Shown here: positions 28,714 through 55,776 of the stretch, piece by piece
Layout: every line of letters begins with the position of its first letter
Position numbering within the stretch: the first letter of the stretch is position 1
From: an uncultured Candidatus Saccharibacteria bacterium
Lineage (GTDB): Bacteria > Patescibacteriota > WWE3 > CAZQFB01
Direction: 5' to 3'
NCBI GenBank assembly: GCA_964592525.1
Contig: CAZQFB010000002.1
Coordinates: 3,310 to 67,309 of the forward strand
Length of the DNA stretch: 64,000 nt
Translations under genes and position numbers: made by a program
The notes under the pieces: generated by a model
Told to the model about the DNA's origin: nothing
Databases searched by the model: none
Seen by the model: the letters and a program-made list of their open reading frames with translations, nothing else

Positions 28714-29244
28714 ATGAGTGGACATTCAAAATGGTCAACGATTAAAAGAAAAAAAGAAGCAAAGGATGCCAAAAAAGGGGTGGCTTTTACTAAGGTCGCT
28801 CGTTTACTTACCGTGGCAGCGCGTGATGGTGGCGCTGATGCTTCTAGTAATGCTTCTTTGCGTTTGGCTCTGGAAAAAGCCAAAGCGGTTAATATGCCTA
28901 AAGACGTGGTGAAAAGAGCTATTGATAAAGGGGCTGGTGGAGAAGCAGCCGCGCTTCAAGAAATTACTTTTGAAGGTTATGGTCCGGGAGGAGTGGCGAT
29001 CTTGGTGGAAGTGGTTACGGATAACCGTAATCGTTGTGTGGCCGAGGTGAGATCTGTTTTTAATAAGTTTAGTGGTTCTTTGGGGGAGACTGGTTCAGCA
29101 GCTTATATCTTTCCTAGTAAAGATAAACCTACTTTTAGAATACCGCTTCAGGATAACGAACAAGCTTCTTTAAGCCGATTATTAAATACATTAGAAGAGT
29201 TGGATGATGTTCAGGAAATTTATACTAATCAGGCGATAGAATGA
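28714..29244 (+). CDS. yebC: YebC/PmpR-family protein, shortened variant
   Basis: N-terminus MSGHSKWSTIKRKK, NMPKD, GYGPGG, DNRNR motifs; about 65 residues shorter than typical YebC. Confidence 0.8.
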   Translation: MSGHSKWSTIKRKKEAKDAKKGVAFTKVARLLTVAARDGGADASSNASLRLALEKAKAVNMPKDVVKRAIDKGAGGEAAALQEITFEGYGPGGVAILVEVVTDNRNRCVAEVRSVFNKFSGSLGETGSAAYIFPSKDKPTFRIPLQDNEQASLSRLLNTLEELDDVQEIYTNQAIE

Positions 29245-30023
29245 AGCTGGGGTTTTGGAATAAACGACAGCAATTTATTATCGTGGTCTTGTTAGAGTGG
29301 TTTTCCTTTTATCTCTGGCGTCAGGTTAACCCCGAAGTTTATTTCTCCTACGGTGGGTTATTTATTCTCGGTGCTCTTATCTTAATTGTATTTGCCTTGC
29401 GGGAGAATATGCAAGGGATGAGGCGCTTTATGTTACCGGCGTTACCTTTAAGCTTATATGTGGCAACATTATGCTTATTAACAACTTTAAGTATTGGCTC
29501 ACCGCTGTGGTACTTGGTGTGGGTAATATATTTACCCTTTTCCTATATTGCTTTATTATCTGTTAATATTTTTGGGGTGGCTTCTAGGAGGGAAGAACGT
29601 TCTATTCCTTTATTAAGAGCGGCGCACACGACTGCCTTTATTGATACTGTGGTAGTGGGCTTTATTTTTTACAGTTTTATTTATAACTTACCTTTACTAC
29701 TGTTTACGCAATTAAGTTTAGTTTTTGGCGTAACTGTGCTTTTAGTGTTTAATTATTTCTGGACGTTAAGCTTAGAAGAAAATGTAAGATGGACCTACCT
29801 CGCATTAGCTATTATCGCTGCTCTGCTCTTAACCCAAGCAGCTTTAGTGGCTAGCTTTTTTCCGCTTAAGTTTTCAACTCGTGGTTTATTACTTAGTACC
29901 ATTCTTTATTCCTTGGTGGGTGTGGTGCGCTATCGAATCATAGGGGAGCTGACGAGTAGAATTATGTTGGAATATGGCGTGGTGATTTTGCTTGTATTGG
30001 GGTTGATTGCGGCTTTTGATTAA
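29241..30023 (+). CDS. Hypothetical polytopic membrane protein
   Basis: 260 aa, about 7 hydrophobic helices; start overlaps yebC stop. Confidence 0.45.
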   Translation: MKLGFWNKRQQFIIVVLLEWFSFYLWRQVNPEVYFSYGGLFILGALILIVFALRENMQGMRRFMLPALPLSLYVATLCLLTTLSIGSPLWYLVWVIYLPFSYIALLSVNIFGVASRREERSIPLLRAAHTTAFIDTVVVGFIFYSFIYNLPLLLFTQLSLVFGVTVLLVFNYFWTLSLEENVRWTYLALAIIAALLLTQAALVASFFPLKFSTRGLLLSTILYSLVGVVRYRIIGELTSRIMLEYGVVILLVLGLIAAFD

Positions 30024-31185
30024 GGGTGAAGATCAAAGTAGCTTAGCAAGCAAAACCGTTGTACGACATATGGGGTCTGATACTATGTGGGGGGAGAGAG
30101 CAGTATAAATCTTTATTTTTAAAACAACCTTCCGATATTAATACGTATTTACTTGACTTAAGTGAAAAATGGGGTGGGGGAGTGGGGGGGGGAAGGGGTT
30201 TTGTCCAAGATTGCGGACAAATATAGCAAAATGGTAGGGTGAGTGATAATAGTCCTGTAGTACTAAATAAATACTATGGGTTATACGACGTGTGCTCAAC
30301 ACTGTGGATAAATAAAACCCGAAGCTCTTTTTTGCGCTGTCCTTATCATTAGTAAAATATAAGTGTGTTATATATACTCTGTGTTCTTTCTCCCTTCTTT
30401 AAATAATATGTTTTTGCCTTTTTACTTATCCAATAAAAATATATTTTTTGTAAACTCCCCTTTTGCTCAAATTTTATAGTGGCAGCAGATGTTTAAATTA
30501 ACGGCATACACTAATTACCTTGTCGCTGCGGTCATTAAGCAACACGAGCTCGCTAGACGCGTTTTAAGCGACTTTATATAAAAAGTAATATATTCAATCA
30601 GCGCTTGTTTGATATTTATGTACCCCAAACGGTGTGCAGCTTTGGTAGTGTTAAGTTTATCTCGGTTGGTTTGTTTGCTGTTAGTTTTGCTTAATATATT
30701 TTAGCAGCTGCGACTTAAACAACAGAAACGATTTTGACTTAGCAGATTATTGATGTTTAAACCAAACATAAATGTCTCGTTATTGTGTCGTACAACCAGG
30801 TGTGGTTTGGGGGTTTGCCATAAATAGTAAATTACTTAAGAGGATGTAGCCTTTCTAAACCTTACCAGGCAATTATCCGACCTTTAGCCAACGCCCACCT
30901 CTTTTTTCATAACCACCTTGGGATTATTAACTTGGTAGTCTTAAACCCCACATGGGTCGTATAATATACATTGCACGACGTAATATTGGGGTTTGTTTTG
31001 GGCTGCCCTTTATATTACTGCAACTGTAACTAATAATACCCTTTTCATGTAGCGTAAATATCAAAATGAAAAATAAATCTGAAAATAGGTAATATTTAAA
31101 TGGATATGGGAGAACCATGAACAAATATGATAAGAAATCAGTTAAATTAGAGTAATTACATTTACGCTCCCCTATTCTCTTGTCT

Positions 31186-31236
31186 GGAATTAAAAAAGAT
31201 TAGGCTCGCTACGAGCAATCGCAACTTAGCGAGCCT
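31186..31236 (-). terminator. Rho-independent terminator of pentapeptide gene A
   Basis: 9-bp perfect stem aggctcgct/agcgagcct overlapping the stop codon, followed on minus strand by a U-run. Confidence 0.55.
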
Positions 31237-31735
31237 ATTTATTGGGCCTTCTCCTGGTGCTTTGACCGAATCGGTAAAGTTGGTTGGGATCTATTAAGGC
31301 ACTTTGCCAGTTTTGCACCTTTTTGAGAATGGCGCCGTATAGCCTGGCTTCTCTAAGATCAGCTTGATCAAGATCTGCCCCGGTCAAGTCCACCCAGCAC
31401 AATTCTGTTTGGATACACAGGGCACCGATGAGAGTTGCCTTTATCAGATCGGCCCCACCTAGCATAGCTTGGCTAAGGTCCGCTCCAGTAAGGTTGGCTT
31501 GGGTGAGGTTAGCTCCGTTTAACCTTGCCTTACGGAGATTGGCCCCAGTTAGATTTGCACCAACTAGGCTAGCCTGACAAAGGTCAGCCTCGTGCAGGTC
31601 AGCCTCGCTCAAGTCAGCCCCCCGCAGGTCAATTACTTCGTCTGGGTGCTTCTGCCTCCAAGCTTGGATCAGAGGTGCTAAGGGTTCCCCTCTAGCGTGT
31701 GCCTCGCGAAGAATATCCTTCAGTGACTCTGCCAC
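31235..31735 (-). CDS. Pentapeptide-repeat protein A
   Basis: Tandem A(D/N)LxX pentapeptides; N-terminal 31 aa identical to gene B; GTG start after GGAGAAGG. Confidence 0.8.
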   Translation of the reverse strand: MAESLKDILREAHARGEPLAPLIQAWRQKHPDEVIDLRGADLSEADLHEADLCQASLVGANLTGANLRKARLNGANLTQANLTGADLSQAMLGGADLIKATLIGALCIQTELCWVDLTGADLDQADLREARLYGAILKKVQNWQSALIDPNQLYRFGQSTRRRPNK

Positions 31736-31775
31736 CTTCTCCCCCCTGTGGTTTTATTCAGCGGATAATGGTGGG

Positions 31776-31804
31776 ATTGTAGCACTAGGCTAACACGAGG
31801 GCAA
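31776..31804 (-). promoter_or_regulatory. Promoter candidate TTGCCC-N17-TACAAT for pentapeptide gene A (module repeated at ~32296 and ~32904)
   Basis: Read on minus strand about 40 nt upstream of the GTG start; same module precedes genes B and C. Confidence 0.4.
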
Positions 31805-31811
31805 TTTGGGG

Positions 31812-31846
31812 TAAGTAAAAAGCCCGTCGGTTGCTAGCCAACGGAC
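31812..31846 (-). terminator. Rho-independent terminator of pentapeptide gene B
   Basis: On minus strand gtccgttgg-ctagcaa-ccgacgggc followed by ttttacttac; 10 nt after the gene B stop. Confidence 0.6.
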
Positions 31847-31855
31847 CTTGCTCTC

Positions 31856-32257
31856 TCACTCTGAATTAGCTTCTTGGAAACGCTTGCGGTTGGTTCTGCC
31901 CATTTGGGCTACTTCCCACCCGCTAAACCCTGCCAACAGGGATCCGCCCATCTTGGCACCGGTGAAGATGGTGTCCTCATCACCCCTCGCCCCCCACAGG
32001 TCAGCCCCGGTCAGGTCAGCCCCGGTCAGGTCAGCCCCGGTCAGGTCAGCCCCGCTCAGGTTAGCTCTCCACAGGTCAGCCCCGGTCAGGTCAGACCACC
32101 TCAGGTCAGCCCCACTCAGGTCAGCCCCGGTCAGGTCAGCCCCGCTCAGGTTGACTATTGCTTCAGGATGCTTCTGCCTCCAGGCTTGGATCAGAGGTGC
32201 TAAGGGTTCCCCTCTAGCGTGTGCCTCGCGAAGAATATCCTTCAGTGACTCTGCCAC
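31856..32257 (-). CDS. Pentapeptide-repeat protein B
   Basis: Tandem GADLT/GADLS pentapeptides; N-terminus shared with A, C-terminal ~40 aa shared with C. Confidence 0.8.
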   Translation of the reverse strand: MAESLKDILREAHARGEPLAPLIQAWRQKHPEAIVNLSGADLTGADLSGADLRWSDLTGADLWRANLSGADLTGADLTGADLTGADLWGARGDEDTIFTGAKMGGSLLAGFSGWEVAQMGRTNRKRFQEANSE

Positions 32258-32500
32258 CTTCTCCCCCCTGTGGTTTTATTCAGCGGATAATGGTGGGATT
32301 GTAGCACTAGGCTAACACGAGGGCAATTTGGGGTAAGTAAAAAGCCCGTCGGTTGCTAGCCAACGGACCTTGCTCTCTCACTCTGAATTAGCTTCTTGGA
32401 AACGCTTGCGGTTGGTTCTGCCCATTTGGGCTACTTCCCACCCGCTAAACCCTGCCAACAGGGCTCTGCCCATCTTGGCACCGGTGAAGATGGTGCCCTC
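32165..32500. repeat. Direct repeat copy 2 (5' coding region of gene B + promoter + terminator + 3' coding region of gene C)
   Basis: Near-identical to 31643-31978. Confidence 0.7.
32334..32368 (-). terminator. Rho-independent terminator of pentapeptide gene C
   Basis: Same hairpin as 31812-31846 with U-run. Confidence 0.6.
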
Positions 32501-32863
32501 ATTACCCCGCGCCCACCTCAGGTCAGCCCCCCTTAAGTCAGCCTTGCTCAGGTTAGCCCAGCTCAGGTCAGCCTGCCTCAAATCAGCCCAGCTCAGGTCA
32601 GCCTGCCTCAAATCAGCCCCGCTCAGGTTAGCCCAGCTCAGATCAGCCCAGCTCAGGTCAGCCCCGCTCAGGTTAGCTTTCCACAGGTTAGCCCACCTCA
32701 GGTCAGCCTCCCACAGGTCAGCCTTGCTCAGGTTAGCCCTCCGCAGGTAAGCTCCAGTCAGATCAAGCGGTACTTCTGGGTGTTCCACTTCCCAGGTTTG
32801 ACGAGCCTTTGCCCAGGTATCAGCTCCCTGTAGTAGTGCTTGCACCAACCCAGTATCAGCCAC
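32378..32863 (-). CDS. Pentapeptide-repeat protein C
   Basis: Repeats ANLS/ADLS/ADLR x about 14; distinct N-terminus; C-terminus shared with B. Confidence 0.8.
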   Translation of the reverse strand: MADTGLVQALLQGADTWAKARQTWEVEHPEVPLDLTGAYLRRANLSKADLWEADLRWANLWKANLSGADLSWADLSWANLSGADLRQADLSWADLRQADLSWANLSKADLRGADLRWARGNEGTIFTGAKMGRALLAGFSGWEVAQMGRTNRKRFQEANSE

Positions 32864-32939
32864 TTTCTCCCCCTTGTGGGTATAGCCAACGGATAATGGT
32901 GGGATTGTAGCACTAGGTTAACACGAGGGCAATTTGGGG

Positions 32940-32974
32940 TAAGTAAAAAGCCCGTCGGTTGCTAGCCAACGGGC
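32940..32974 (-). terminator. Rho-independent terminator of small membrane-protein gene (third copy of the same hairpin module)
   Basis: gcccgtcgg-ttgctag-ccaacgggc; on minus strand followed by U-run; promoter module for gene C adjacent. Confidence 0.55.
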
Positions 32975-32981
32975 TCATAGG

Positions 32982-33302
32982 CTAGGGTTTGTTCGCGTTT
33001 ATCAGCTTGAAGATTACTACACCAAGCCAAGAGCTGAAAATAAGTAGTAGGGCTAGCAGTGTAATCATGCTAAGGAGAGATACTTCCACCAACCCTAAGC
33101 TGTTGATAAGTATCTCCACCAGCCCACCAACAAGCAGTTCCAGCAACCCTAGGGTGAAAATGAATGCCATTCCTGCAAAAAAAAGATAGCGCTTGAGGCT
33201 GTACGTTCTATAATCAGCCCAATAGGCGTTCAGCACCGCACCTAAAAGACAGCATACCGTAAGCCAAGACTGTGAGCTTTCGCCTCTGCCTAGTGGCAAC
33301 AT
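32982..33302 (-). CDS. Hypothetical small membrane protein
   Basis: 106 aa, 3 hydrophobic helices. Confidence 0.35.
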   Translation of the reverse strand: MLPLGRGESSQSWLTVCCLLGAVLNAYWADYRTYSLKRYLFFAGMAFIFTLGLLELLVGGLVEILINSLGLVEVSLLSMITLLALLLIFSSWLGVVIFKLINANKP

Positions 33303-33506
33303 CCCCTTCTCCTTTGCTTGTTATTAGCACTTGCTTACACGTTGACTTTAGTTTTGTGTTTGTGCTGTTACCCTAGTTAGCTTCGTGTTTGCCATTTTAC
33401 TCTTTTTTAGTGGACTTTGCTTTTAAGCGATAGCGGATATTGGAAAATGATTGCATCTCTACCTCCTGACCTTTATACTTAGTATGTCGCACATTATAAC
33501 CTGCCT

Positions 33507-34439
33507 ATGGATATTGCGGAACTAGTTACTGACTATCTTGAATATTTGGAGCTGGAACGTAACCGCTCTAAAAAGACCCTGATCAACTATGATCATTACT
33601 TGCGCCGCTTTAGTGCCTTTTGTGCTACCCGACAGGTTAAAGCTTTAGCCGAGATTGATCTAGAGTTGGTACGCGCTTATCGCCTTTATCTAAACGAAGC
33701 GGATGAGCAAGGCGAACCAAGGCTTAAAAAAATCACCCAAAACTACCACCTGATCGCGCTACGCAATTACCTTAAATATTTAGCCAAAAAAGACATCCCC
33801 ACCCTTTCGCCCGAGAAAATTGAATTAATGGAGCCGGAAGCGAGAGAAATAAGCATTCTTAGACTAGATCAATTAGAGGATCTGTTAACCAAACCCGACC
33901 GCACGACTCTAAATGGCAAAAGAGATAAAGCGATTTTGGAAGTACTCTTTTCTACTGGTTTGCGGGTTAGCGAATTGGTTGGCTTGAACCGTAGTAGTAT
34001 TGACTTGGAAAGACGTGAGTTTAGCGTGGTGGGTAAACGGAGGAAGCGCCGAGTGGTGTTTTTGAGTCGGCGTGCTGCCGAGTACCTCACCGAGTGGCTG
34101 GAGGCACGAAAGGATAATTTTGAGCCCTTGTTTATTCGTCTTAAAGGTAAAAGAACCAAAGCCGACCCTTTGGGTTCTGACTTACGTCTTACCCCACGGA
34201 CAATCCAAAGAATTGTGCGCAGATATGCCACTATGGCGGGGATTGTCTCTCCGGTCACGCCTCATACTTTAAGGCATTCTTTTGCCACCGATTTGTTGCT
34301 AGGTGGAGCGGATGTTCGAGCGGTGCAGGAGCTTTTGGGGCACGAAAGTATTACTACTACGCAAATTTACACCCATTTTACCAACAAAGAATTACGCGAA
34401 GCCCACGAAAAGTACCACGCGACACGGCAAACCACTTAA
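33507..34439 (+). CDS. Tyrosine site-specific recombinase (XerC/XerD-like)
   Basis: N-terminal SAM-like domain; C-terminal RxxR...LRHSFAT...LGHESITTTQIYTH with catalytic Tyr. Confidence 0.85.
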   Translation: MDIAELVTDYLEYLELERNRSKKTLINYDHYLRRFSAFCATRQVKALAEIDLELVRAYRLYLNEADEQGEPRLKKITQNYHLIALRNYLKYLAKKDIPTLSPEKIELMEPEAREISILRLDQLEDLLTKPDRTTLNGKRDKAILEVLFSTGLRVSELVGLNRSSIDLERREFSVVGKRRKRRVVFLSRRAAEYLTEWLEARKDNFEPLFIRLKGKRTKADPLGSDLRLTPRTIQRIVRRYATMAGIVSPVTPHTLRHSFATDLLLGGADVRAVQELLGHESITTTQIYTHFTNKELREAHEKYHATRQTT

Positions 34440-34448
34440 ACTCTATTT

Positions 34449-34949
34449 TTGTTATCCTTATTAATCTGTGCTAACATGTGTCCACCGCTTTTCCCAACTA
34501 GGAGACCCAGCATGGCATATGTCTATTGTTTAGCGGTGTCGCAGACTGAAAGACCTCCAAGCTGGATCAACATCCGCAACAATTCTCGGATTGCCTTAGC
34601 TAAGAACTACTCGGAGCTCTTACATTTACAGGCGATATTGTCGCCGGTACGGGATTTCCAGTTGGCTTACTATGATGAGTCTGGTAATCAGCTTAAGGGA
34701 GATCCGGGATCTTTTGCCAACCGGGTAGTGCAAGTAGATAGGGATGATGGTGCTCATTGGTATTCAACGATCGCGACTTGCCTTAAAGGTTTAAGGCGCT
34801 TGTATCCTCAAGCTTCACATCAACAGATTGGGCAAGACCCAGCCGTGAAGCTGTATCTTGCGGTTATGGATCTAACGGTAGGTCTAACGGAAGCCACCTA
34901 TCAGGAAGCTTACTTATGGTTAGGTGGTTGTTACGATAGCTCTATCTAA
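34449..34949 (+). CDS. Hypothetical protein
   Basis: 166-aa ORF directly after recombinase; likely start at internal MAYVY (about 34512). Confidence 0.35.
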   Translation: MLSLLICANMCPPLFPTRRPSMAYVYCLAVSQTERPPSWINIRNNSRIALAKNYSELLHLQAILSPVRDFQLAYYDESGNQLKGDPGSFANRVVQVDRDDGAHWYSTIATCLKGLRRLYPQASHQQIGQDPAVKLYLAVMDLTVGLTEATYQEAYLWLGGCYDSSI

Positions 34950-34964
34950 GCGAGAAACCGGTAC

Positions 34965-35004
34965 ACAAAAACCCCCACGCTAAAAGCGTGGGGGTTCTTA
35001 TATT
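34965..35004. terminator. Bidirectional Rho-independent terminator
   Basis: A-run, 9-bp stem cccccacgc/gcgtggggg, T-run; between convergent genes. Confidence 0.6.
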
Positions 35005-35018
35005 ATCACCTGACTCTG

Positions 35019-35180
35019 TTAACTAAGTTCATCTTCATCGTCGTCTAGGTCGTTGTCAGAGTCGTCATCTTCAAAATCAATGTCATCATCATCATCATCT
35101 TCTGGGTCTTCAGCTGTGTCAGTCTCTTCGCCGTCTGCTTCTAGTTCGTCATCCTCACTTTCAAACATCTCATCATCCAT
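35019..35180 (-). CDS. Small highly acidic protein (53 aa, Asp/Glu-rich)
   Basis: ATG after AAGGGGG RBS; about 60 percent D/E residues. Confidence 0.45.
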   Translation of the reverse strand: MDDEMFESEDDELEADGEETDTAEDPEDDDDDDIDFEDDDSDNDLDDDEDELS

Positions 35181-35302
35181 TAAAACACACCCCCTTTCAG
35201 GAGTAATATTATTTAATGTGTGAAAGGTAATAAAAAAAAGTCTTTTGGTCAAGTTTTTTGTGGGGGTAATAATAAGTTACTACCCCCACGAAGACAACAA
35301 GT

Positions 35303-35542
35303 TCAAGGTGGTGCCTGCAGACCTCTTTTAATGCGGTGCGCACAAGGTCCACACAAATGTATTTCATGCTTACTCTCCCCTAAACCACATTGATTGGGGC
35401 AGCGTGTGAGGACTCCTCTACCCTGGTGGCGGATCTGCCCCTCACATCGGTGGGGACAAGTGCTGCTTGAAGGTCGGAAGGTCCTTTCTTTTAATGCTCG
35501 TGCTTCCCTTTGCCAATGATCCAGGCTGTAGCGATCACTCAT
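35303..35542 (-). CDS. Small Cys-rich protein (three CxxC/CxxxC pairs)
   Basis: 79-aa ORF; start ATG overlaps the stop of the upstream zinc-ribbon ORF (ATGA). Confidence 0.4.
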   Translation of the reverse strand: MSDRYSLDHWQREARALKERTFRPSSSTCPHRCEGQIRHQGRGVLTRCPNQCGLGESKHEIHLCGPCAHRIKRGLQAPP

Positions 35543-35712
35543 TTCCTACTCCTTTTTGGATTGGGAAAATGGAAAGTTAGACCACACTTACAACATTGAT
35601 AACTAATGAGCCTTTCACCCCGGTAGTTTTTGATTGAGGTTGGTTTAACGAGGAATCTTTTACCACCACAATAACAGACCCGTTGCTGCTCCTCTGACAG
35701 TTGCTTTAGCAC
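35539..35712 (-). CDS. Small zinc-ribbon protein (57 aa, below ORF-track threshold)
   Basis: GTG start 6 nt after AGGAGG; CYCGG ... CCKCG; 87 nt downstream of gyrA stop, same strand. Confidence 0.4.
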   Translation of the reverse strand: MLKQLSEEQQRVCYCGGKRFLVKPTSIKNYRGERLISYQCCKCGLTFHFPNPKRSRK

Positions 35713-35798
35713 AACCCACCTCCTACAGTGTTGTCGGTTGCGGCTATTATATACTAAAACATGCTAATTAAAAAAGTAGTCCCCCTAGTGGTGAGGGT

Positions 35799-38375
35799 TT
35801 ACGCAGCAATGGTCGCGGCATTGATGGTTTCTGCAAGCTCGCCATCTTCTTGATCAATGATAGTAATAGCGGCAAGGTTATCTCTGGCACTTAGATTAAT
35901 CAGTTTCACGCCTTGCGTGGCGCGACCAAGAATGGAGACCTGTTTGATTGGTACCCGTACTACCTGACCTTCACTGGAGGTCATCAAGACGTCAGCCTTT
36001 AAGTTAGTGACCATCCGGGCAGACACCAAAGAGCCAGTTTTGTCATTGATTCTAGCAGTTAAAATCCCCGTACCTCCCCTCTTTTGTAGCGTATATTCTG
36101 TTAATTTGGTTAACTTACCATAACCCTTTTTACTCACCACCAATAAGTGGGCAGCCAGATCAACCACCGCCATGCCAACGACCAGGTCTTCGTGTTTTAG
36201 TCTAATACCACGTACCCCGCTAGCACTGCGCCCCATGGGGCGTAAGTCCTTTTCCCCAAAACGGATGGACATACCTTTAGCGGTGGTTAGTATTATTTCA
36301 TTACTACCACTGCTCCAGTGTACCCAGCTTAACTCATCATCAGCTTTCAGGCGGATGGCGATTTTGCCACTTTTTCTGATGTTGTCAAATTCGGCTAAAG
36401 CCGTCCGTTTAACATTGCCTTTTTTCGTAGCAAAGATCAGGTATTTAGCAGTGTCGCCTTTTTGCATCTTCACAATACTTTGCGGTCGTTCGCTGGAGAG
36501 GATGTCAATCACATTAACCAGCGCGGTGCCTTTAGCGGTGCGAGAAGCTTCGGGTATTTCATGAACAGAGATGGAATATACCTTGCCACGATTGGTGAAA
36601 AAGAGCAATTTATCATGGGTGTTAGCATAGACAATGCGTGAGACCACGTCTTCTTCTTTGGTTTTCATACCCTTAACCCCTTTACCCCCCCTCCCCTGGG
36701 TTTTGTAGGTGGAGACATTTAACCTTTTGATATAACCACTTTCGGTCAAGGTAACAATTACATCTTCTTCTGGTACCAAGTCTTCATCACTTAACGTTTT
36801 CAGACCCCTTTTATAAACTTTCGTTCTTCGCTCGTCACCATATTTATCTTTTAATGCCGCTAACTCTTTGCTAATCGTGTCTAATATTTGTTGCGGAGAG
36901 CCTAACAGTGCTTGGTAGTTGGCAATTTTGTTTTTGATGTCAGCCAATTCGTCCTTAATCTTTTGTTGCTCAAGCGCGGCTAATTTTCTAAGCTGCATAT
37001 CTAAGATCGCTTGGGCCTGGATCTCGGTGAGCTTAAACTTGGTCATCAAATTAGTTTTGGCTGTTTCCGCGTCTGGACTCTTTTTAATAGTGTCAATCAC
37101 CGCATCCAAATGATTGAGTGCGATCATTAAACCTTCTAAAATATGTTCGCGTTCTTTAGCTTTCTTTAGTAAATATAACGTTCGTCTGATGGTGACTATT
37201 TGCCGATGTTTGACAAATTCAGTCAAAATCTGCTTGAGGGTTAAGATCTTTGGTTCGCCATTGACTAGGGCAACAAGATTGGCATTAAAACTTTTTTCCA
37301 AATCCGTGTGTTTATAAAGTTGGTTAAGGATTCTTTGCGGGCGAATGTCACGTTTTAGCTCTATTACCATTCTAATGCCGTCACGATTAGACTCATCTCG
37401 TAAATCAGAAATGCCTTTGATTTTCTCTCTTTTAACCAAATCAGCAATCTTCATGACCAAGTTAGCTTTATTAACTTGATACGGTAGCTGTGTGACCACA
37501 ATTTGCATCTTCCCCCCTTTAATTTCTTCGGTTTCCGCAATACCCCGGATGATGATACGACCCTTACCAGTAGTGTAAGTGTGAACAATTTCATTAACAT
37601 CGTAAATATTTCCCCCAGTGGGGAAATCGGGTCCTTCCAGGTGTGCCATTAGCTCTTCAATGGTGATTTCCGAGCTGAAAGATATCTCGGGAGCAACTCC
37701 TTCCGCCAAAGGTTCACTAGTCTCTCCGTTAGCAGGTAAAATTGCCTTTCCTTTCTTGATTAAAGCGATAGTGGCATTAATGATCTCATTTAAATTGTGG
37801 GGAGGAATGTTCGTGGCCATACCCACAGCGATGCCAGACGAGCCGTTGACAAGCAGGTTTGGAAACAACGCTGGTAGAATTGTTGGCTCTTCGGCTTCAC
37901 CGGAATAATTACTTCTAAAATCAACGGTATCTTGGTTAATGTCTGCCAACATCTCGGAAGCTATTGGGGCTAAGCGACATTCGGTATAACGCATGGCGGC
38001 GGGGCTGTCACCATCAATGGAACCAAAGTTGCCCTGACCGTCAATGAGCGGAATGCGTAAAGAAAATTCTTGGGCCATGCGCACCAAAGTGTGATAAATG
38101 GCCAAGTCGCCGTGAGGGTGGAATTCTTTCATCACCTCACCCACAACAGCAGCGCATTTTTTATAAGAGGTACCTGGGTTCATGCCTTGACGGTGCATGG
38201 CATAAATAATGCGTCTTTGCACTGGTTTAAGACCGTCCCGCACATCCGGCAGCGCTCTAGCCACAATAACACTCATAGCATAGTCCAGATAGGACTTCTG
38301 CATTTGTTGGGAAATAGACACACCGGAAACGGTGGGGTGTGGTGTTGTTGTTTTTGGTTTAGTACCAGTTGCCAT
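35799..38375 (-). CDS. gyrA: DNA gyrase subunit A
   Basis: 858 aa; N-terminal catalytic region with AMRYTECRL and active-site Tyr context; C-terminal beta-pinwheel repeats. Confidence 0.95.
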   Translation of the reverse strand: MATGTKPKTTTPHPTVSGVSISQQMQKSYLDYAMSVIVARALPDVRDGLKPVQRRIIYAMHRQGMNPGTSYKKCAAVVGEVMKEFHPHGDLAIYHTLVRMAQEFSLRIPLIDGQGNFGSIDGDSPAAMRYTECRLAPIASEMLADINQDTVDFRSNYSGEAEEPTILPALFPNLLVNGSSGIAVGMATNIPPHNLNEIINATIALIKKGKAILPANGETSEPLAEGVAPEISFSSEITIEELMAHLEGPDFPTGGNIYDVNEIVHTYTTGKGRIIIRGIAETEEIKGGKMQIVVTQLPYQVNKANLVMKIADLVKREKIKGISDLRDESNRDGIRMVIELKRDIRPQRILNQLYKHTDLEKSFNANLVALVNGEPKILTLKQILTEFVKHRQIVTIRRTLYLLKKAKEREHILEGLMIALNHLDAVIDTIKKSPDAETAKTNLMTKFKLTEIQAQAILDMQLRKLAALEQQKIKDELADIKNKIANYQALLGSPQQILDTISKELAALKDKYGDERRTKVYKRGLKTLSDEDLVPEEDVIVTLTESGYIKRLNVSTYKTQGRGGKGVKGMKTKEEDVVSRIVYANTHDKLLFFTNRGKVYSISVHEIPEASRTAKGTALVNVIDILSSERPQSIVKMQKGDTAKYLIFATKKGNVKRTALAEFDNIRKSGKIAIRLKADDELSWVHWSSGSNEIILTTAKGMSIRFGEKDLRPMGRSASGVRGIRLKHEDLVVGMAVVDLAAHLLVVSKKGYGKLTKLTEYTLQKRGGTGILTARINDKTGSLVSARMVTNLKADVLMTSSEGQVVRVPIKQVSILGRATQGVKLINLSARDNLAAITIIDQEDGELAETINAATIAA

Positions 38376-38459
38376 GAAAGCTAATTATACTCATTTGTGG
38401 CTGTAACGACAATGGTTTTGGCTTTTGAAGTAGAATAATACTGGCCCCGATTGTGCTGT

Positions 38460-38825
38460 TTAGGGGCCAGGGTCTCTCTGTCTATTGGTGATTCGTTTTC
38501 TAGCCAGGTAGCAACCGTGCAGGAGCAGTAAGGCAAGTGATTGGCAAGAGAAGGCGAGCAAGCAGAAGCTGAACTTGTGAATAATGCTCGTGATTATACA
38601 AGCCATCACTGCGGTAACCACCCAAGTTGTTATCAGGGCCGCTGCCCAAGTTAAGCCGGTCTCAACTAAGATAAGACAGGTAATAATTGCCAACCACATG
38701 GTTACTAGGAGGATAAGCCCACCCAACACAAGACCTAAGTCTTTAGTGATTACCACCACTACTACCAATACTAATGAGGCTGACAGTAGTACTGCCGCTA
38801 AGGCGATACGGGTAGGATTGCCCAT
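38460..38825 (-). CDS. Hypothetical membrane protein
   Basis: 121 aa, strongly hydrophobic; in the gyrB-gyrA intergenic insert. Confidence 0.3.
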   Translation of the reverse strand: MGNPTRIALAAVLLSASLVLVVVVVITKDLGLVLGGLILLVTMWLAIITCLILVETGLTWAAALITTWVVTAVMACIITSIIHKFSFCLLAFSCQSLALLLLHGCYLARKRITNRQRDPGP

Positions 38826-39217
38826 CTTCTCCCCCTTGGCTAAAAATTAGGCTTGTCTTTAATAATAAAGCATTGGTTAAAAAATTAAAAAGAGTTTTCT
38901 GTTGATGAAGTATTTTTAACGAGGGCTATTGACCGTAGTGTAAGTCTAATGGTTGTTCTTTCCTGACTTAGCAAGCAGTTAAACCATTGTGGTTATGAGT
39001 TAAAACCGTAAGCTCTGTAAGGCTATTTGGTTGCGCAGAAATAAATGAGCAGTTTTAAACTAGCTGTTGTAAAACTTTCTTATAAGAGCAACTATCTTGT
39101 GCTTACTATCACCGCCAAGGGTTGGGGGTAAGTTAGTCTGCTTAGGCTTATGGCGCTAGCTGGTGAAGCCCGGCGGGTTAATAAAACCCGCCGGGCTGTT
39201 GCAGTGAGTTGGGCAGA

Positions 39218-39613
39218 CTACGAAAGCTCTTGAGACAACTTGTCTTTGTATGCTAGCCAGTTGTCCCACCAGGCTTGGACAGCCTCCTCTGTCTCTTGGA
39301 TATGCTCTGTTCTCTTCCAGTACTGCACATCAACGTGTGGTTGTTTAGGGCTGAATTGGAAACGGATGGCTGCCCGAATCAGCTCCACGGTTGAACCGGG
39401 CCAGTTTCCGGTTCGGTGGGATTTAGATCCTACCAAAATCTCTGCATCCACAACAACAGCTCTCTCCTCCTTGTTTTCTGCAGGAAATATGAGGAAACAA
39501 AAAGAGCCGGGGTAAATCCCCTTGTCCATCAAGAAAGCAGCAAATCTACCCGGCGACAGCTCCACTACACTGCTCACTCCTTCCTCCTTGTATGGTGAAT
39601 CGGATATAATCAC
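39218..39613 (-). CDS. Hypothetical protein
   Basis: 131-aa ORF between gyrB and gyrA; no recognisable motif. Confidence 0.35.
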   Translation of the reverse strand: MIISDSPYKEEGVSSVVELSPGRFAAFLMDKGIYPGSFCFLIFPAENKEERAVVVDAEILVGSKSHRTGNWPGSTVELIRAAIRFQFSPKQPHVDVQYWKRTEHIQETEEAVQAWWDNWLAYKDKLSQELS

Positions 39614-39811
39614 TTAGTTATCACACCAGTTACGAGCCGTCAACCTAGTGGTTGGATATAATCCCTTTAGTGTGCCGGTTAATCGGGAGAAGAAAATTGC
39701 CTGTGTTTCTATCAAACCTTATTCAAATAAAAAAGTGACCCGGTTTACGTAAACAAGGTAAGCCAAGTGTAAGTCTAAAAACTGGTGCTTGCTCTGGATA
39801 TAGTTAGCTAT

Positions 39812-42554
<2,743 letters not shown>

Positions 42555-50480: not shown

Positions 50481-52907
50481 ATGCTGCCCCAAAAGAGTCT
50501 GCTTAAATTAACTACTTCTTTAATTTTCACCTTGGCTTGGCTGGTTAGTTATCCCTCTGTGGCGCAAGCGGAGGATCAGTGGCAGGTGGTGGGTGATTAT
50601 CCAGGCACTATTAATAATTCTTTTAATGAGGTTTTAGATGAAAAAGCTCCTAATTGTACCGATGGTAGTATTTACTCCTTAAACGGTCATTTGTATGTAA
50701 TTATAGATGGACCTTATTATCGCACAACTGTTTATCGGCTGGATGGCAATTCATGGGTAAATATTGGAGAAATTACTAAAAGTAGCGGTTCAAGTAATCC
50801 TGGAAAAGCTATGACATACTACCAAGATAATCTTTATGCTATTAGCCGTGCCTACACTAGAGAATACATTTTTCCTGATGGTGATATTACTACTCAATGG
50901 GATAGTACGGGAGTTGATCATTACACTGAGGTAGATGAAGACGTACTAGCTCCCATAGCGGGAGATACCAACGATCACATTTATGGTCGTATGAATGATG
51001 TCGATCAATTCAGCCTGAGTGATCCCACCAAAAATGAGACTGCTAATCGAATAGATATTCATTTTTACGGTAGGGGGATCCATGACAAACCCGATAACAC
51101 TGATTGGGCCCCTGTATTGGTGGAACTTATGCTTGATGGCGTGGCAATATCCGATGATACTTTAAGTTTGCCCAATAACAACTGGGGTTGGTTTACCACT
51201 AATCACGCGAATAATGTTGAATTAACACCTTCAGAGTTAAACAGGTTAGAGCTCAAATTAACACCCAACCATGTACAAGACATGACAACTTATTATATTG
51301 CTGCTGTCGTCGTGGAGGTATCATATGATTCAGCACTAACGGCAGCGAAATATATTTCTGATAATAATTGGCAACCCTTAGGCAATACCTCCCTAGATTG
51401 TGATGATACAGGCAGTGCTTATTTTAGCTGCAATACTACTGGTGTGACTGGTTTTTGGGGTTATAACAATAAACTGTATGTAGGTACTGGTGCTTCTACT
51501 GGTCCGAAAGTGTTTGAGTGGAATGGTTCTACTTGGTCTTTAGTGGGATCATCTGGGCTGGGTGATCGTGCGGGGGGAACCGATCGGGGTAGTCTTGATT
51601 TACTTACTCATGACTCAAGCCTGGTGGCGGGAGGTATGCAGAACACAACCTGCACAGTATGCCTTTCACCCGGTAATTGTGTGCCTGGGGTTTCATGTTC
51701 CTTAGCTTCAATATATAAATTTAATTCTGCTAATAATTGGAGTTATCTTGCTTATGATAATGACACCACTATGACCGCTGTTGCTGACACTAATGCTCGT
51801 TCTTTAGTGGAAATTGCCAGTACTTTATACACGCATGATGTAAATAGTGTTTATAAATACATTCCTGATGCGGGGCATCCTGACCCCGATATTATGGGTT
51901 TAGTGGGGAGTCGGAGGTTTAATTCTCCTGCGCAAAATGTAGGTATGACCTCTTGTGATAATTATTTATACACCCATGCTTCTAGGTCTAGCTTTGGCAC
52001 CTGGGATGAGGTTTATCGCTTTGATACTACTAGTGGTACTCAATGGGACATGGTCGGTGATTATTTTGCACTGGGTGAAAAGCATCTGTACCACGGGGTG
52101 CACAGCATCACCACCTTAAATGATAAGGTTTATGTTCTTACTAAACAGTCATTGGATGATCTTGAGTTTCATATTTTAGTTAGTTACAAAGGATTGCTGT
52201 CTAATTTTGAACCATATCCTGCTGTGCAAGTGTGGGAGTATACCGGCGCGGCGGGCAGTTGCGGTGCCGTCAATGGCACTATCAGCGGCGTGGTGTTTGA
52301 GGATGAGGATCTGGATGGTCTTTATGATACGGGCGAAAGTTATAAGTCTGGGGTGGTCGTAAGCCTTAATCCCGGAGGTCTTTCCGTCAATTCCTTAGCA
52401 GCGGACCCAAGCTATACTTTCACCGAGCTAGACCCTAGTCCCACGTACTCCCTAGCGATTACGTTGCCCAGTGGCTGGGTGGCCACCACACCCTACCAGG
52501 TTGGTAACATTGTCTTTAATGAAACCACTCCCTCTTACACCATCAACTTTGGTTTGATCCAAGGCGGTACCCTTCAAGGTACGGTTTGGGAAGATGAGGA
52601 CAAGCAATGCGACATTGATCCCGGTGAGCAAAATTACACTGGTGCAGTGGTTGATCTTCAGTTTGACCACAGCTTGTCCACCTCAAACCCTCAACTAAAA
52701 TATGATGTAGCCACCTCATCGGAGATCACCACGGGTACTAATTTTTCTTGGCTGGTGGCGCCTGGTAGTTATACCGTCAGCGTGGACTCTAGTCCTTGGG
52801 CACCTTCGGGGTACGATGCTACTACTGACACCAGTGTTAGTGGGGTGGTGGTTACTAAAGGCGGCACAACCACTACGTCAGCAGCAAGTTGTCTTAACTT
52901 GGAGTGA
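50481..52907 (+). CDS. Large secreted protein with C-terminal SdrD-B/Cna-B-like repeats (candidate pilus-associated adhesin)
   Basis: Signal peptide; repeated G.V.EDED.DG.YD.GE motifs near C-terminus; embedded in pilus operon. Confidence 0.5.
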   Translation: MLPQKSLLKLTTSLIFTLAWLVSYPSVAQAEDQWQVVGDYPGTINNSFNEVLDEKAPNCTDGSIYSLNGHLYVIIDGPYYRTTVYRLDGNSWVNIGEITKSSGSSNPGKAMTYYQDNLYAISRAYTREYIFPDGDITTQWDSTGVDHYTEVDEDVLAPIAGDTNDHIYGRMNDVDQFSLSDPTKNETANRIDIHFYGRGIHDKPDNTDWAPVLVELMLDGVAISDDTLSLPNNNWGWFTTNHANNVELTPSELNRLELKLTPNHVQDMTTYYIAAVVVEVSYDSALTAAKYISDNNWQPLGNTSLDCDDTGSAYFSCNTTGVTGFWGYNNKLYVGTGASTGPKVFEWNGSTWSLVGSSGLGDRAGGTDRGSLDLLTHDSSLVAGGMQNTTCTVCLSPGNCVPGVSCSLASIYKFNSANNWSYLAYDNDTTMTAVADTNARSLVEIASTLYTHDVNSVYKYIPDAGHPDPDIMGLVGSRRFNSPAQNVGMTSCDNYLYTHASRSSFGTWDEVYRFDTTSGTQWDMVGDYFALGEKHLYHGVHSITTLNDKVYVLTKQSLDDLEFHILVSYKGLLSNFEPYPAVQVWEYTGAAGSCGAVNGTISGVVFEDEDLDGLYDTGESYKSGVVVSLNPGGLSVNSLAADPSYTFTELDPSPTYSLAITLPSGWVATTPYQVGNIVFNETTPSYTINFGLIQGGTLQGTVWEDEDKQCDIDPGEQNYTGAVVDLQFDHSLSTSNPQLKYDVATSSEITTGTNFSWLVAPGSYTVSVDSSPWAPSGYDATTDTSVSGVVVTKGGTTTTSAASCLNLE

Positions 52908-52930: not shown

Positions 52931-53482
52931 ATGAACAAAAAAGCAGTCATCTTAATAGGATCCTTAATCGTGCTTATATTTTTGGGTTTAGCGACTTGGT
53001 ATATCAATCATAACCCAAAAAACACTTCCGAGGCTGCTCAAATAGCAGTGCCTTTTGGCAGCCATGAAAGTGGCGCGCAAAATAGCCAAGCAAATTTAGC
53101 CAACGATCCTCGTTATAAGGACTACCGTACGGAACCAGTACCACCCTCCTCTGACTTTAGTGTGTTTTTAACTGATGCTTTTGGTACCGAGATAGCCAAC
53201 GATTCGGTGATTACCGTTGATGACTCCAGTTATATCACTAATTATGACCTGCACTTTCCTAATTTAGGTCAGCTGGAAAGTGGAGAGAGTTACACCTTAT
53301 GGTTACAAACGGACGAGGGTGCCCGCACACTGCTAGGTCAACTTGAGGTGGCGGAAGGTGTGGGTGTCTATCAGGCAGCAGGGTCAAGAGTGAAAGCGGG
53401 CTGGAGCATTTTGGTGATATATGAAAATAGCGCTAATGAAGAAAACCTGATTTACCGAGGCAGATTAATACCTAAGCCATAA
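52931..53482 (+). CDS. Hypothetical membrane-anchored protein
   Basis: 183 aa, N-terminal TM. Confidence 0.4.
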   Translation: MNKKAVILIGSLIVLIFLGLATWYINHNPKNTSEAAQIAVPFGSHESGAQNSQANLANDPRYKDYRTEPVPPSSDFSVFLTDAFGTEIANDSVITVDDSSYITNYDLHFPNLGQLESGESYTLWLQTDEGARTLLGQLEVAEGVGVYQAAGSRVKAGWSILVIYENSANEENLIYRGRLIPKP

Positions 53483-55776
53483 TGAAAAACCACCCTCCCC
53501 TACTTGGCTTAGTCACCATTATGACCTTACTGGGAGTGGGTTGGTTAGTGGTGCGTGAGGTCCAGGCCAGTTTTGGTGTTTATCCCAAGAATGGCACTTT
53601 TACTGGCTATGTGTTTGAGGATTTAGATAGTGATGGGGTGAGAGATGTCGGCGAACCCAACTATAACTTTACCCTCAACCCTTATTACTCTATTACATAC
53701 CAGGGTCCCGAGAATGGTAACTTGTTGGTTAACGGTGCTGTATCTCCTACTAAAAATCTGGTTTCCAATGAGGTGCGGCCTGGTTTGTATACGGTTAATT
53801 TTGGTACCCTGCCCGCGGGTTTTATGTTAACCACTTCACCAAGCCAGCAGGTTAATGTACCACCAGGGGGAGTGGCTCCGGAGGTTTTGTCTTTTGGCAT
53901 TAAAGTTGGCCCCCCACGGATAGAGGGCGTGGTGTGTGATGATTCAAATAATAATAATAGTTGTGACGCGGGGGAAGAATTAAGCGGAATAACTGTGGGT
54001 TACACCACACCCACTTTAGGCAGTAACTTTGTGACCACACCCACCACTCAAATTGCGAGCTGCTCTGGTTGTAACTACACGACCATGGAGAACACGCCCT
54101 CACTTTACCCAGGCACTAATCTAGTAGCAGTCACTATTCCGCTGGGGAAAATACTTAAGTCACCTACACAACCACAACAGAAAGAGTTAGTGCTGGGAGA
54201 ACATTGGCAGGTTGATTTTGTTTTTGGTGGTGAAACGGATGGTCGGATTGGTGGCTATCTGTGGAATGACTATAACCAAAATAGCTTATATGATGAGGAA
54301 GAAGACGAAACGATATTAAATGACCAGCGATTTACGATTTCTGTTTGGGAAGGTGGTCATGAGTACTTCTCTGCTCCTCCTCATCCGGCGGCTGGTACTT
54401 ACCTGACTGACCTTCTGACCCCTGCTTCCGATTACAATGTTAACTTAGAGCTGCCTTGGGGATATTGTTTGGGTGATCTGGGGGTGGCGGAGGTAGGTTG
54501 GAATGATAATGAGTCTGTTTATGAATATGCAGTTAAAGAGTCTCCTCTGGAGACCGGTTCAGTGATTGAAGTGACTGGTGGTGCGGTGTCTACCGTTAAT
54601 TTAGGTGTGTTGTCTGATTATGATCTCTCGCAAGACCCACCAACGGATGTTATTTTAACGCCTCCTGATGAGGCTACCGTCCGGCTGATTATTGATGATG
54701 TGGGAGATGCTACTCCCTGTTGGGGGGGTGGTGATGTCTCTGTTGCTTTTGACGACAGTGGCTGGCCACCAGGATTAACTTTCAGCACAACTCCGCCTGT
54801 ACCGGCTCTTCTTGATCCCAACTCTAAACCGGATTTTTATCTGACAATTTCTGCTGATAGCACAGTGCATGATGGTATTTATCCATATGAATATATAGCT
54901 ACTAATCCTTTCCGCGGTAAAGTGCTGGGGGGGTACAATGTGGTCGTTGGTTTGCGTAGCTGGCTTCAGCTGGTTGACTTAGATGTGTTTTCAGCCTACA
55001 CCGGTATTGAACCACCCATTAATTTTGTGCTGCCCCAGACTCCTTGTTGTGGATACTCTCCCTATTTAGTGACGAGAAGCACGTCGGCTTGGGGGGGTGG
55101 TGATTTAGGTGGGATGGCCGTGGCGGTGGGCCAAATAGACATTGCGGTGACCACTACGGCTGGAGATCCCGCGGCTAGCAGCCGGAGTTGGGTCTTGAAT
55201 CAGTATACAGGTGATCTTGGTTTGCCCCTTAGTGAGTTGGCGCTTGGTTTGGTGAGTACAGAGTGTGATTTTGACCAGCTGGTACCGGGGGGTGCTTGCC
55301 AGTACGAAGGTAAGTACCTGCCAGATGGTTATGACCTTACCGGAGTGGGCGTGGCGGTGGTTTATGTGCCAGATGATTTGTTTATTAATACAGATTTTAG
55401 ATCGGACGCGGTTAATGAACGGGTGATCATTGTCGTTGCTGGTGAGATTAAGATTGCAGGGTCAGTGGGCGTGCCCTACAACCCCCCCTCCACGTACGCT
55501 AATATTGAAGCGGTGCTGATTACTTTAGACGGCTGGGATATTATTCTGGATAGTAATGATAATTTAAGTGAACAACTGCGCCTGACTGGTGGCTTGTATG
55601 CTTCCGGGCATCTGGAAAATATGCGTGAGGTCCAGGAAAGTGGTGGTCAGGTTAATACCTTCCCGTCTTTGGTGGTGAGCAGGGATCCGTTCTATTACCA
55701 TACGCCTATCTATCAGTTTTCAAAAGTAAAATTGCACTGGCGAGAAGTTAATTTTATGCCAACTAACTATGACTAA
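53482..55776 (+). CDS. Large secreted protein with SdrD-B-like repeats (second candidate pilus-associated adhesin)
   Basis: N-terminal anchor; GYVFEDLDSDGVRDVGEP and GGYLWNDYNQNSLYDEEED motifs. Confidence 0.5.
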   Translation: MKNHPPLLGLVTIMTLLGVGWLVVREVQASFGVYPKNGTFTGYVFEDLDSDGVRDVGEPNYNFTLNPYYSITYQGPENGNLLVNGAVSPTKNLVSNEVRPGLYTVNFGTLPAGFMLTTSPSQQVNVPPGGVAPEVLSFGIKVGPPRIEGVVCDDSNNNNSCDAGEELSGITVGYTTPTLGSNFVTTPTTQIASCSGCNYTTMENTPSLYPGTNLVAVTIPLGKILKSPTQPQQKELVLGEHWQVDFVFGGETDGRIGGYLWNDYNQNSLYDEEEDETILNDQRFTISVWEGGHEYFSAPPHPAAGTYLTDLLTPASDYNVNLELPWGYCLGDLGVAEVGWNDNESVYEYAVKESPLETGSVIEVTGGAVSTVNLGVLSDYDLSQDPPTDVILTPPDEATVRLIIDDVGDATPCWGGGDVSVAFDDSGWPPGLTFSTTPPVPALLDPNSKPDFYLTISADSTVHDGIYPYEYIATNPFRGKVLGGYNVVVGLRSWLQLVDLDVFSAYTGIEPPINFVLPQTPCCGYSPYLVTRSTSAWGGGDLGGMAVAVGQIDIAVTTTAGDPAASSRSWVLNQYTGDLGLPLSELALGLVSTECDFDQLVPGGACQYEGKYLPDGYDLTGVGVAVVYVPDDLFINTDFRSDAVNERVIIVVAGEIKIAGSVGVPYNPPSTYANIEAVLITLDGWDIILDSNDNLSEQLRLTGGLYASGHLENMREVQESGGQVNTFPSLVVSRDPFYYHTPIYQFSKVKLHWREVNFMPTNYD

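Follow-up and report, generated by a model that had tools for sequence, protein, structure and literature searches.

Three pentapeptide-repeat genes near gyrA of a Patescibacteria bacterium: a probable lineage-specific accessory block evolving by conversion and repeat slippage

We analysed a window of 64,000 nucleotides (nt) from an uncultured Candidatus Saccharibacteria bacterium (assembly GCA_964592525.1, contig CAZQFB010000002.1, positions 3,310 to 67,309 of the forward strand), in which three neighbouring minus-strand genes, here called A, B and C, encode pentapeptide-repeat proteins. All coordinates below are those of the window. A, B and C are an ordinary, fast-evolving accessory family within the known pentapeptide-repeat superfamily, and in structural and evolutionary terms they are likely to form a lineage-specific accessory block that evolves by conversion and slippage. 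According to this account, a block made of a small membrane open reading frame (ORF) and the three paralogous genes would have been inserted between a conserved Xer gene and DUF5656-YebC. Each gene would yield a small cytosolic protein in which a two-helix cap precedes a short beta-helix of about 4-5.5 coils. A recent gene conversion or segmental duplication would have left one tract that reaches from the 3' part of a gene across the intergenic module into the 5' part of its neighbour, and slippage or unequal exchange of 15-nt units would change the length of the beta-helix. The proteins may then serve as surface-binding or macromolecule-mimicking modules in accessory functions or conflicts, and would not be dedicated to gyrase.

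Gene A (31235-31735, minus strand) encodes 166 aa, with a two-helix N-terminal cap, about 21 pentapeptides and a C-terminus of its own. Gene B (31856-32257, minus strand; 133 aa) combines an A-type N-terminus and a C-type tail with its own linker and (GADLT/S)n array, and gene C (32378-32863, minus strand; 161 aa) has a diverged N-terminal cap, 11 tryptophans and an orphan C-terminal tail. All three start with GTG, each behind a strong GGGGGAGAA-type ribosome-binding site (RBS). A Pfam search matched them to PF00805 with E-values of 1.6e-30 (A), 2.3e-24 (B) and 6.8e-32 (C), at 85-109 bits against a cut-off of 20.2. A preliminary description of this DNA had announced three minus-strand pentapeptide-repeat genes, and both the ORFs and the PF00805 matches agree with it. 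Membership in the superfamily requires eight or more contiguous A(D/N)LXX pentapeptides, and we counted about 21 in register in A, about 11 in B and about 17 in C, to which B and C each add about 4 degenerate ones. The predicted beta-helices would thus have about 5.3 (A), 4.0 (B) and 5.5 (C) coils.

The fold was examined with AlphaFold (AF2) models of A and C, using database homologues as input alignments. In the model of A (mean predicted local distance difference test score, pLDDT, 91) two N-terminal helices are followed, at residues 36-141, by one short strand for every five residues. The model of C (mean pLDDT 87, above 90 over residues 1-120) has the same layout, two N-terminal helices preceding one short strand per five residues, with the beta-helix at 33-120 and a low-confidence tail; its top Foldseek matches are NP275-NP276, HetL and the synthetic beta1 solenoids. 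The right-handed quadrilateral beta-helix, which the preliminary description had put forward as a check, is therefore confirmed by prediction for A and C. B, which begins like A and ends like C, would by homology have the same cap and a short beta-helix. A C-terminal helix is predicted with low confidence in C (pLDDT 44-74) and in A (50-82). A and B are acidic overall, B having an isoelectric point (pI) of 4.8, and the helix part carries a net charge of -5 in A, -8 in B and 0 in C. The 11 tryptophans of C make up 7% of its residues, and many of them close repeated ADLSW/ADLRW units, at a position that faces outward; the surface of C, with its neutral helix, is strongly unlike that of the acidic B.

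The arrangement of the three genes became clear from a self-comparison of the sequence at an offset of 522 bp. This revealed a single contiguous tract, of which 280 nt are perfectly repeated (31662-31941 = 32184-32463) and about 335-360 nt are near-perfect. Both copies lie on the minus strand and take in 86 nt from the end of one gene, the intergenic module and 74 nt from the start of the following one: B and A in the first copy (31662-31941), C and B in the second (32184-32463). Read along the genes, the duplicated tract thus leads from a gene's 3' end through the hairpin terminator, the promoter-like site and the RBS into the 5' end of its neighbour. It is impossible that such a repeat arose by chance. 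At the protein level, the 31 N-terminal aa are identical between A and B, and the last 38 residues are common to B and C with 2 differences, the final 27 or so being identical. The preliminary description had already reported the identical 31-aa N-terminus, a shared C-terminus of about 40 residues and repeats of about 335 bp at a 522-bp period. All of these hold, with the correction that its 'A/B' and 'B/C' modules are the two halves of one tract.

Outside the tract, identity falls to 75-92% in what would be older paralogous sequence. The linkers differ between the three proteins (EAIVNLSG in B, DEVIDLRG in A, EVPLDLTG in C), that of B equalling neither of the others. B and C agree at only about 75% of positions in the array and at about 92% where the tail begins. 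Overall, about 180 nt comprising the linker, the array and the start of the tail are private to B and found in neither A nor C. Because the 280-nt core carries no substitutions while its flanks are at 75-92%, and because the linker and array of B resemble neither A nor C, the mosaic is best read as a recent gene-conversion or segmental-duplication tract over three older paralogues.

A second source of change would be the 15-nt units that encode the pentapeptides. Using Tandem Repeats Finder (TRF), we found 3.4 copies in A (31581-31631), 10.9 in B (31989-32151) and 17 in C (32511-32765, with a 45-nt super-period), all on the minus strand. B contains GGGGCTGACCTGACC in three perfect consecutive copies, and C a perfect 30-nt duplication. 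These perfect repeats at the DNA level show, as far as sequence can, recent slippage that alters helix length in B and C. The distal repeats of A use varied codons and look older. The earlier claims that the genes differ in their numbers of 15-nt repeats and that the locus is recombination-prone and rapidly diversifying are both upheld, the latter by the 280-nt perfect tract, the perfect 15- and 30-nt repeats and the unequal repeat numbers. Plus-strand ORFs over B and C (31848-32315, 31874-32203 and 32370-32750) translate to SAPVRSAPVR-type strings; we rejected these and similar ORFs across the arrays as genes, since the 15-nt repeats produce them in the mirror frame.

Each gene is furnished with its own signals. 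A promoter-like TTGCCC-N17-TACAAT site with a TG before the -10 box lies upstream of A (31776-31804, minus strand), and identical sites lie upstream of B (32298-32326, minus strand) and C (32904-32932, minus strand), so that the module proposed in the preliminary description is real and occurs three times. A hairpin terminator of -16.7 kcal/mol followed by a T-run stands after B (31819-31849, minus strand), and the same sequence follows C (32341-32371, minus strand). The sharing of a terminator, also claimed earlier, is thus correct for B and C; A ends in a different hairpin, at the end of the array (31201-31237, minus strand; -21.4 kcal/mol, z = -5.3). With its own hairpin, promoter-like site and RBS, each of A, B and C is therefore a self-contained predicted transcription unit. 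A third copy of the hairpin, promoter and RBS module, 92% identical, is found upstream of C (32856-32972, minus strand), directly 3' of a hydrophobic 106-aa ORF (32982-33302, minus strand) that belongs to no family. The related hairpin of this copy (32948-32976, minus strand; -19.1 kcal/mol) follows that ORF, and the module doubles as terminator for this upstream membrane-protein ORF. Since it carries the hairpin module in common with the three genes and is missing from relatives, the 106-aa ORF is probably part of the same inserted block.

We then placed the block in its genomic setting. The gene for the A subunit of DNA gyrase, gyrA (35799-38375, minus strand), scores 1130.6 bits with NF004043 against a cut-off of 902, and its stop lies 2.9 kb from the start of C, in keeping with the distance of about 3 kb given earlier; gyrB is at 39812-41788. 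Among 5.8 billion proteins no relative of the window GyrA exceeds 65% identity, and its named matches come from Patescibacteria, WWE3, Saccharibacteria, Curtissbacteria and Parcubacteria; the host is therefore, by its GyrA, a divergent Patescibacteria (Candidate Phyla Radiation, CPR) bacterium, and the type IV pilus genes, DUF5656 and the TrwB-like gene in the window agree with this placement. We compared the gyrA neighbourhoods of four of the closer relatives, whose GyrA is 65% (L026), 60% (L027), 59% (L030) and 57% (L031) identical. All four keep a backbone of gyrA, an Xer-like recombinase gene on the opposite strand and DUF5656-YebC, and L026 and L031 also have holB-gyrB and pilus genes on the other side of gyrA. 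None of these four neighbourhoods contains a pentapeptide-repeat gene or the 106-aa ORF. Likewise, no pentapeptide-repeat ORF was found in the flanks of 27 gyrA loci from other organisms (0/27), and a genome-collection scan with GyrA, whose relatives were at most 52% identical, gave no pentapeptide-repeat gene near any gyrA.

What varies is the slot between the Xer gene and DUF5656. In L026 it is occupied by DinB and small ORFs, and in L027, L030 and L031 it measures only about 0.6-1.1 kb; in the window it spans 3.5 kb, made up of a 1.2-kb AT-rich stretch, A, B, C and the 106-aa ORF. Since relatives keep the backbone without pentapeptide-repeat genes, and since the slot varies, the array, judged by gene order, lies close to gyrA only because it was inserted at a position that varies within an otherwise conserved backbone. 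The same comparison bears on the tyrosine recombinase near which the preliminary description had placed a rapidly diversifying locus. The gene exists (33507-34439, plus strand), and it is a housekeeping-type, Xer-like backbone gene outside the array, orthologous and syntenic in the four array-free relatives (69.5% identity in L026), so that its closeness is not supported as a mechanism.

The block also differs from its surroundings in composition, with a GC content of 0.49-0.58 against a background of about 0.43 and a third-codon-position GC content (GC3) of 0.51-0.65 against 0.41 (0.52 in the 106-aa ORF); CTG makes up 82% of leucine codons in B against 16% in the background. No database match runs end to end with A or B, the best ones covering the repeats only, and a HMMER search with the 49-aa tail of B and C against 1.84e9 representatives returned B itself only. 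The nearest homologues of A, with 50% identity and 68-72% coverage, come from phage-like contigs, next to SSB, ERF, NinG, RecU and DNA methyltransferase genes. These best relatives (L028, 5204-6049; L029, 2927-3763) are 278-281 aa long, one with a DUF5758 C-terminal domain, and they sit in an early replication and recombination region that includes N6/N4 methyltransferase genes. A PHROG search gave only pentapeptide families of unknown function, two metagenome scans (with the hairpin-promoter module and with an A-specific 45-mer) found nothing, and a search of the literature on pentapeptide repeats in Patescibacteria yielded nothing relevant. The block would have been acquired horizontally, possibly from a gene pool of phages or other mobile elements.

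Several observations weigh against the account of an inserted block evolving by conversion and slippage. Conversion is not separable from a history in two steps, duplication first and divergence later. The composition is partly confounded, as amplification of one 15-nt unit raises GC3 and the CTG share by itself. The likeness to phage proteins is mostly at the level of the repeats and does not establish a donor. No homologue provides a function, and a PADLOC search for defence systems gave no match for A, B or C. Finally, a single assembly underlies the copy number and the order C-B-A. B and C are complete in just one NCBI contig (107,887 bp) and are not recorded as gene positions, and the exact A protein was found only on a 1.6-kb Logan contig, L001. 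These exact-protein look-ups thus give no second full assembly of the locus. L001 (from SRR11845623) equals window positions 30176-31820 with one base different, and it crosses the point where A and B branch (31661/31662) unbroken. Contigs built from k-mers would not cross such a branch point were B equally covered. The unbroken passage therefore hints that B is absent or rare in the SRR11845623 read set.

Such data could mean that the order or copy number is an artefact of assembly or of strain mixture, B being an allele of a co-existing strain that was threaded into a loop of the assembly graph, or present in no, one or more copies. The 280-nt perfect repeat is indeed longer than usual k-mers and reads, and Logan contigs from two runs end within the repeat module, L001 at 31820 and L025, from the second run, at about 32943, some 39 nt past the 106-aa ORF. 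On the other hand, the roughly 180 nt of B-only sequence, absent from A and C, argue that B is not a pure artefact. Both ends of this sequence enter the repeat, so a B-type gene would exist in at least part of the population. Furthermore, L001 ends exactly where its 31-mers become common with the copy upstream of C, which fits a real multi-copy module. Taken together, we consider an erroneous order or copy number unlikely.

Because the Logan contig bypasses B, it also hints at variation in copy number within the population. A more ambitious extension would see here a horizontally acquired contingency locus of a CPR episymbiont, in which conversion and the gain or loss of 15-nt units yield short beta-helix proteins that vary in length and surface, such as the acidic B and the Trp/Arg-rich C, and that act as mimics of nucleic acids or proteins against phages, restriction systems or the host cell, with a copy number that varies between cells. 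We give this extension only a slim chance.

It is also quite improbable that B is a fresh chimera, in which one unequal crossover between the repeats of the adjacent genes C and A fused A's 5' half with C's 3' half. B does carry the N-terminus of A and the tail of C, and the shared segments are contiguous at one 522-bp offset. However, with no substitution in 280 nt, such an event should have left parental identity throughout. Instead, identity collapses at 31661, before the arrays are reached, the next 100 positions differing at 30, and the linker of B and its array match neither parent, for which we rejected the single crossover in its simple form. A tract laid over older paralogues remains our preferred reading of the mosaic.

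The preliminary description had further interpreted A, B and C as gyrase-directed DNA mimics. If so, they would be proteins like Qnr, MfpA, McbG or AlbG that protect or regulate the cognate gyrase, encoded 3-9 kb away. In favour of this are the acidity of B (pI 4.8, helix net charge -8), the presence of both gyrA and gyrB within 9 kb and the C-terminal helix predicted, at low confidence, in C and B. We scored the three proteins against curated NCBIfam models, whose cut-offs are 240 bits for Qnr (NF033086), 360 for MfpA (NF000349), 260 for HetL and 125 for Alr5209. Scores for A, B and C were, respectively, 36.4, 21.0 and 32.5 bits with Qnr, 36.3, 36.5 and 35.0 with MfpA, 75, 56 and 86 with HetL and 92.6, 54.5 and 105.1 with Alr5209, none of which reaches its cut-off; those for Qnr and MfpA are missed by a factor of roughly 7-20 in bits. 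In sequence as in fold, the three proteins are closer to cyanobacterial and synthetic proteins: PDB sequences of synthetic beta1, HetL and NP275-NP276 matched with E-values of 1e-30 to 1e-22 and 36-54% identity, against 1e-7 to 1e-5 and 17-25% for Qnr, AlbG and MfpA.

The shape of the proteins and their context point the same way. Gyrase-type pentapeptide-repeat proteins have 8-9 coils, with loops A and B projecting in Qnr (PMC8145042), and they dimerize head to head through a C-terminal alpha-helix (PMC8145042, PMC10886550), which gives a long electronegative rod. A, B and C have about 4-5.5 coils; the models of A and C show no Qnr-type loops, and the five-residue register of the three proteins is unbroken. 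The helix of C, moreover, has a net charge of 0 and the protein 11 Trp. The gene for MfpA belongs to the mfp conservon, which also encodes the small GTPase MfpB (PMC10886550). Beside the array we found no GTPase or Roadblock gene, its neighbours being the 106-aa ORF, Xer, a family-less ORF, DUF5656 and YebC, and among the annotated ORFs of the window there is no cluster for biosynthesis or export of a gyrase poison, the context of McbG and AlbG. The relatives keep the gyrA synteny without pentapeptide-repeat genes. The gyrase reading is not supported, its sole specific argument having been proximity to gyrA, which was lost on comparison with relatives; we regard it as very unlikely. An integron-like array, in which the divergently oriented tyrosine recombinase would capture and shuffle genes at the hairpins, is extremely improbable and was rejected: the recombinase does diverge from small same-strand genes ending in the same inverted repeat, but it scores best as XerC/XerD (about 230 bits, against 112.9 for the integron integrase model TIGR02249 with its cut-off of 265), it is syntenic in array-free relatives, the hairpins have the 8-12-bp GC stems and T-run of intrinsic terminators, and each gene has its own promoter-like site, unlike the promoterless cassettes of integrons, which end in attC sites.

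Other features of the window concern the surroundings of the block. The clade backbone (25576-48557) runs from a TrwB-like ATPase gene through a 215-aa ORF, YebC and DUF5656 to Xer and gyrA, followed in the window, L026 and L031 by gyrB-holB and pilB/pilT/pilC; the window also encodes DnaB and a prepilin peptidase. The intervals next to the Xer gene form hot spots, with DinB in L026, an IS200-type Y1 transposase in L031, a permease and an epimerase in L027 and several other genes in L030. A DinB/ImpB-type polymerase gene is present in the window 25 kb away (6313-7596), and the nearest relative, L026, has its DinB in the Xer-DUF5656 slot. Between DUF5656 and A (30024-31234) lie 1.2 kb of AT-rich DNA (GC about 0.37) with a G-run (ggggtgggggagtggggggggga) near 30170-30195, in which we found neither an Rfam match nor an ORF of more than 65 aa. 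This non-coding stretch is unusually long for a compact CPR genome and may be debris of the insertion. The YebC/TACO1-like ORF (28714-29244) has 176 aa, with its second Pfam domain matched in two pieces; YebC measures 169-189 aa in the relatives, and the short form is seemingly typical of the clade. Cumulative GC skew climbs until about 31 kb, levels off or declines until about 42 kb and then climbs again, the middle part (about 30000-42000) coinciding with the minus-strand block of pentapeptide-repeat genes, gyrA, gyrB and holB. Downstream of the pilus genes, 50481-52907 and 53482-55776 encode proteins of 808 and 764 aa whose only Pfam match is an SdrD B-like domain, below cut-off in the 764-aa protein; these may be pilus-associated adhesins.

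Since the closeness to gyrA did not hold up against the relatives, an annotation of A, B and C as gyrase protectors of the Qnr/MfpA kind, or their inclusion among resistance determinants, should be avoided. They offer instead a clean example of concerted evolution and of change in repeat length in a pentapeptide-repeat family, and the tail of B and C constitutes an orphan module. In a reduced CPR genome such as this one, accessory genes are few and are probably relevant to the symbiotic or phage-exposed lifestyle. Should their copy number truly vary within the population, the locus would provide tractable contingency-type variation in an uncultivated lineage.

Among known systems, the topoisomerase-interacting pentapeptide-repeat proteins (MfpA, Qnr, EfsQnr, AlbG and McbG) have the superfamily and the fold in common with A, B and C, and share acidity with A and B. 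In contrast, A, B and C have half the coils, lack the Qnr loops and seemingly also a homologous dimerizing C-terminal helix, and occur in neither a conservon nor a toxin cluster, in a gyrA neighbourhood that is not conserved. Phage pentapeptide-repeat proteins (phrog_7713 and others, some with DUF5758) include the best-scoring full-length relatives of A (P0243 and P0244, 50% identity), which have a similar N-terminal 'KDIL..H..W.RGEP' start, and PHROG pentapeptide families match A, B and C with E-values down to 5e-33. A, B and C, however, lack DUF5758 or any other C-terminal domain and have no flanking phage genes, and the similarity is mainly in the repeats. The cyanobacterial-type proteins Np275/Np276, HetL, Alr5209 and Rfr23/Rfr32 and the synthetic beta1, which include the best PDB sequence matches, are like A, B and C in their short helices (4-8 coils) and N-terminal helical cap, and Np275 and Np276 are, as A, B and C, encoded by adjacent genes (PMC8145042). 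The hosts differ, a cyanobacterium on one side and a CPR bacterium on the other; scores with HetL and Alr5209 stay under their cut-offs, and the tail of B and C is an orphan. Finally, A, B and C would be three separate transcription units overlaid by a recent conversion tract, and not a single gene that was split in two.

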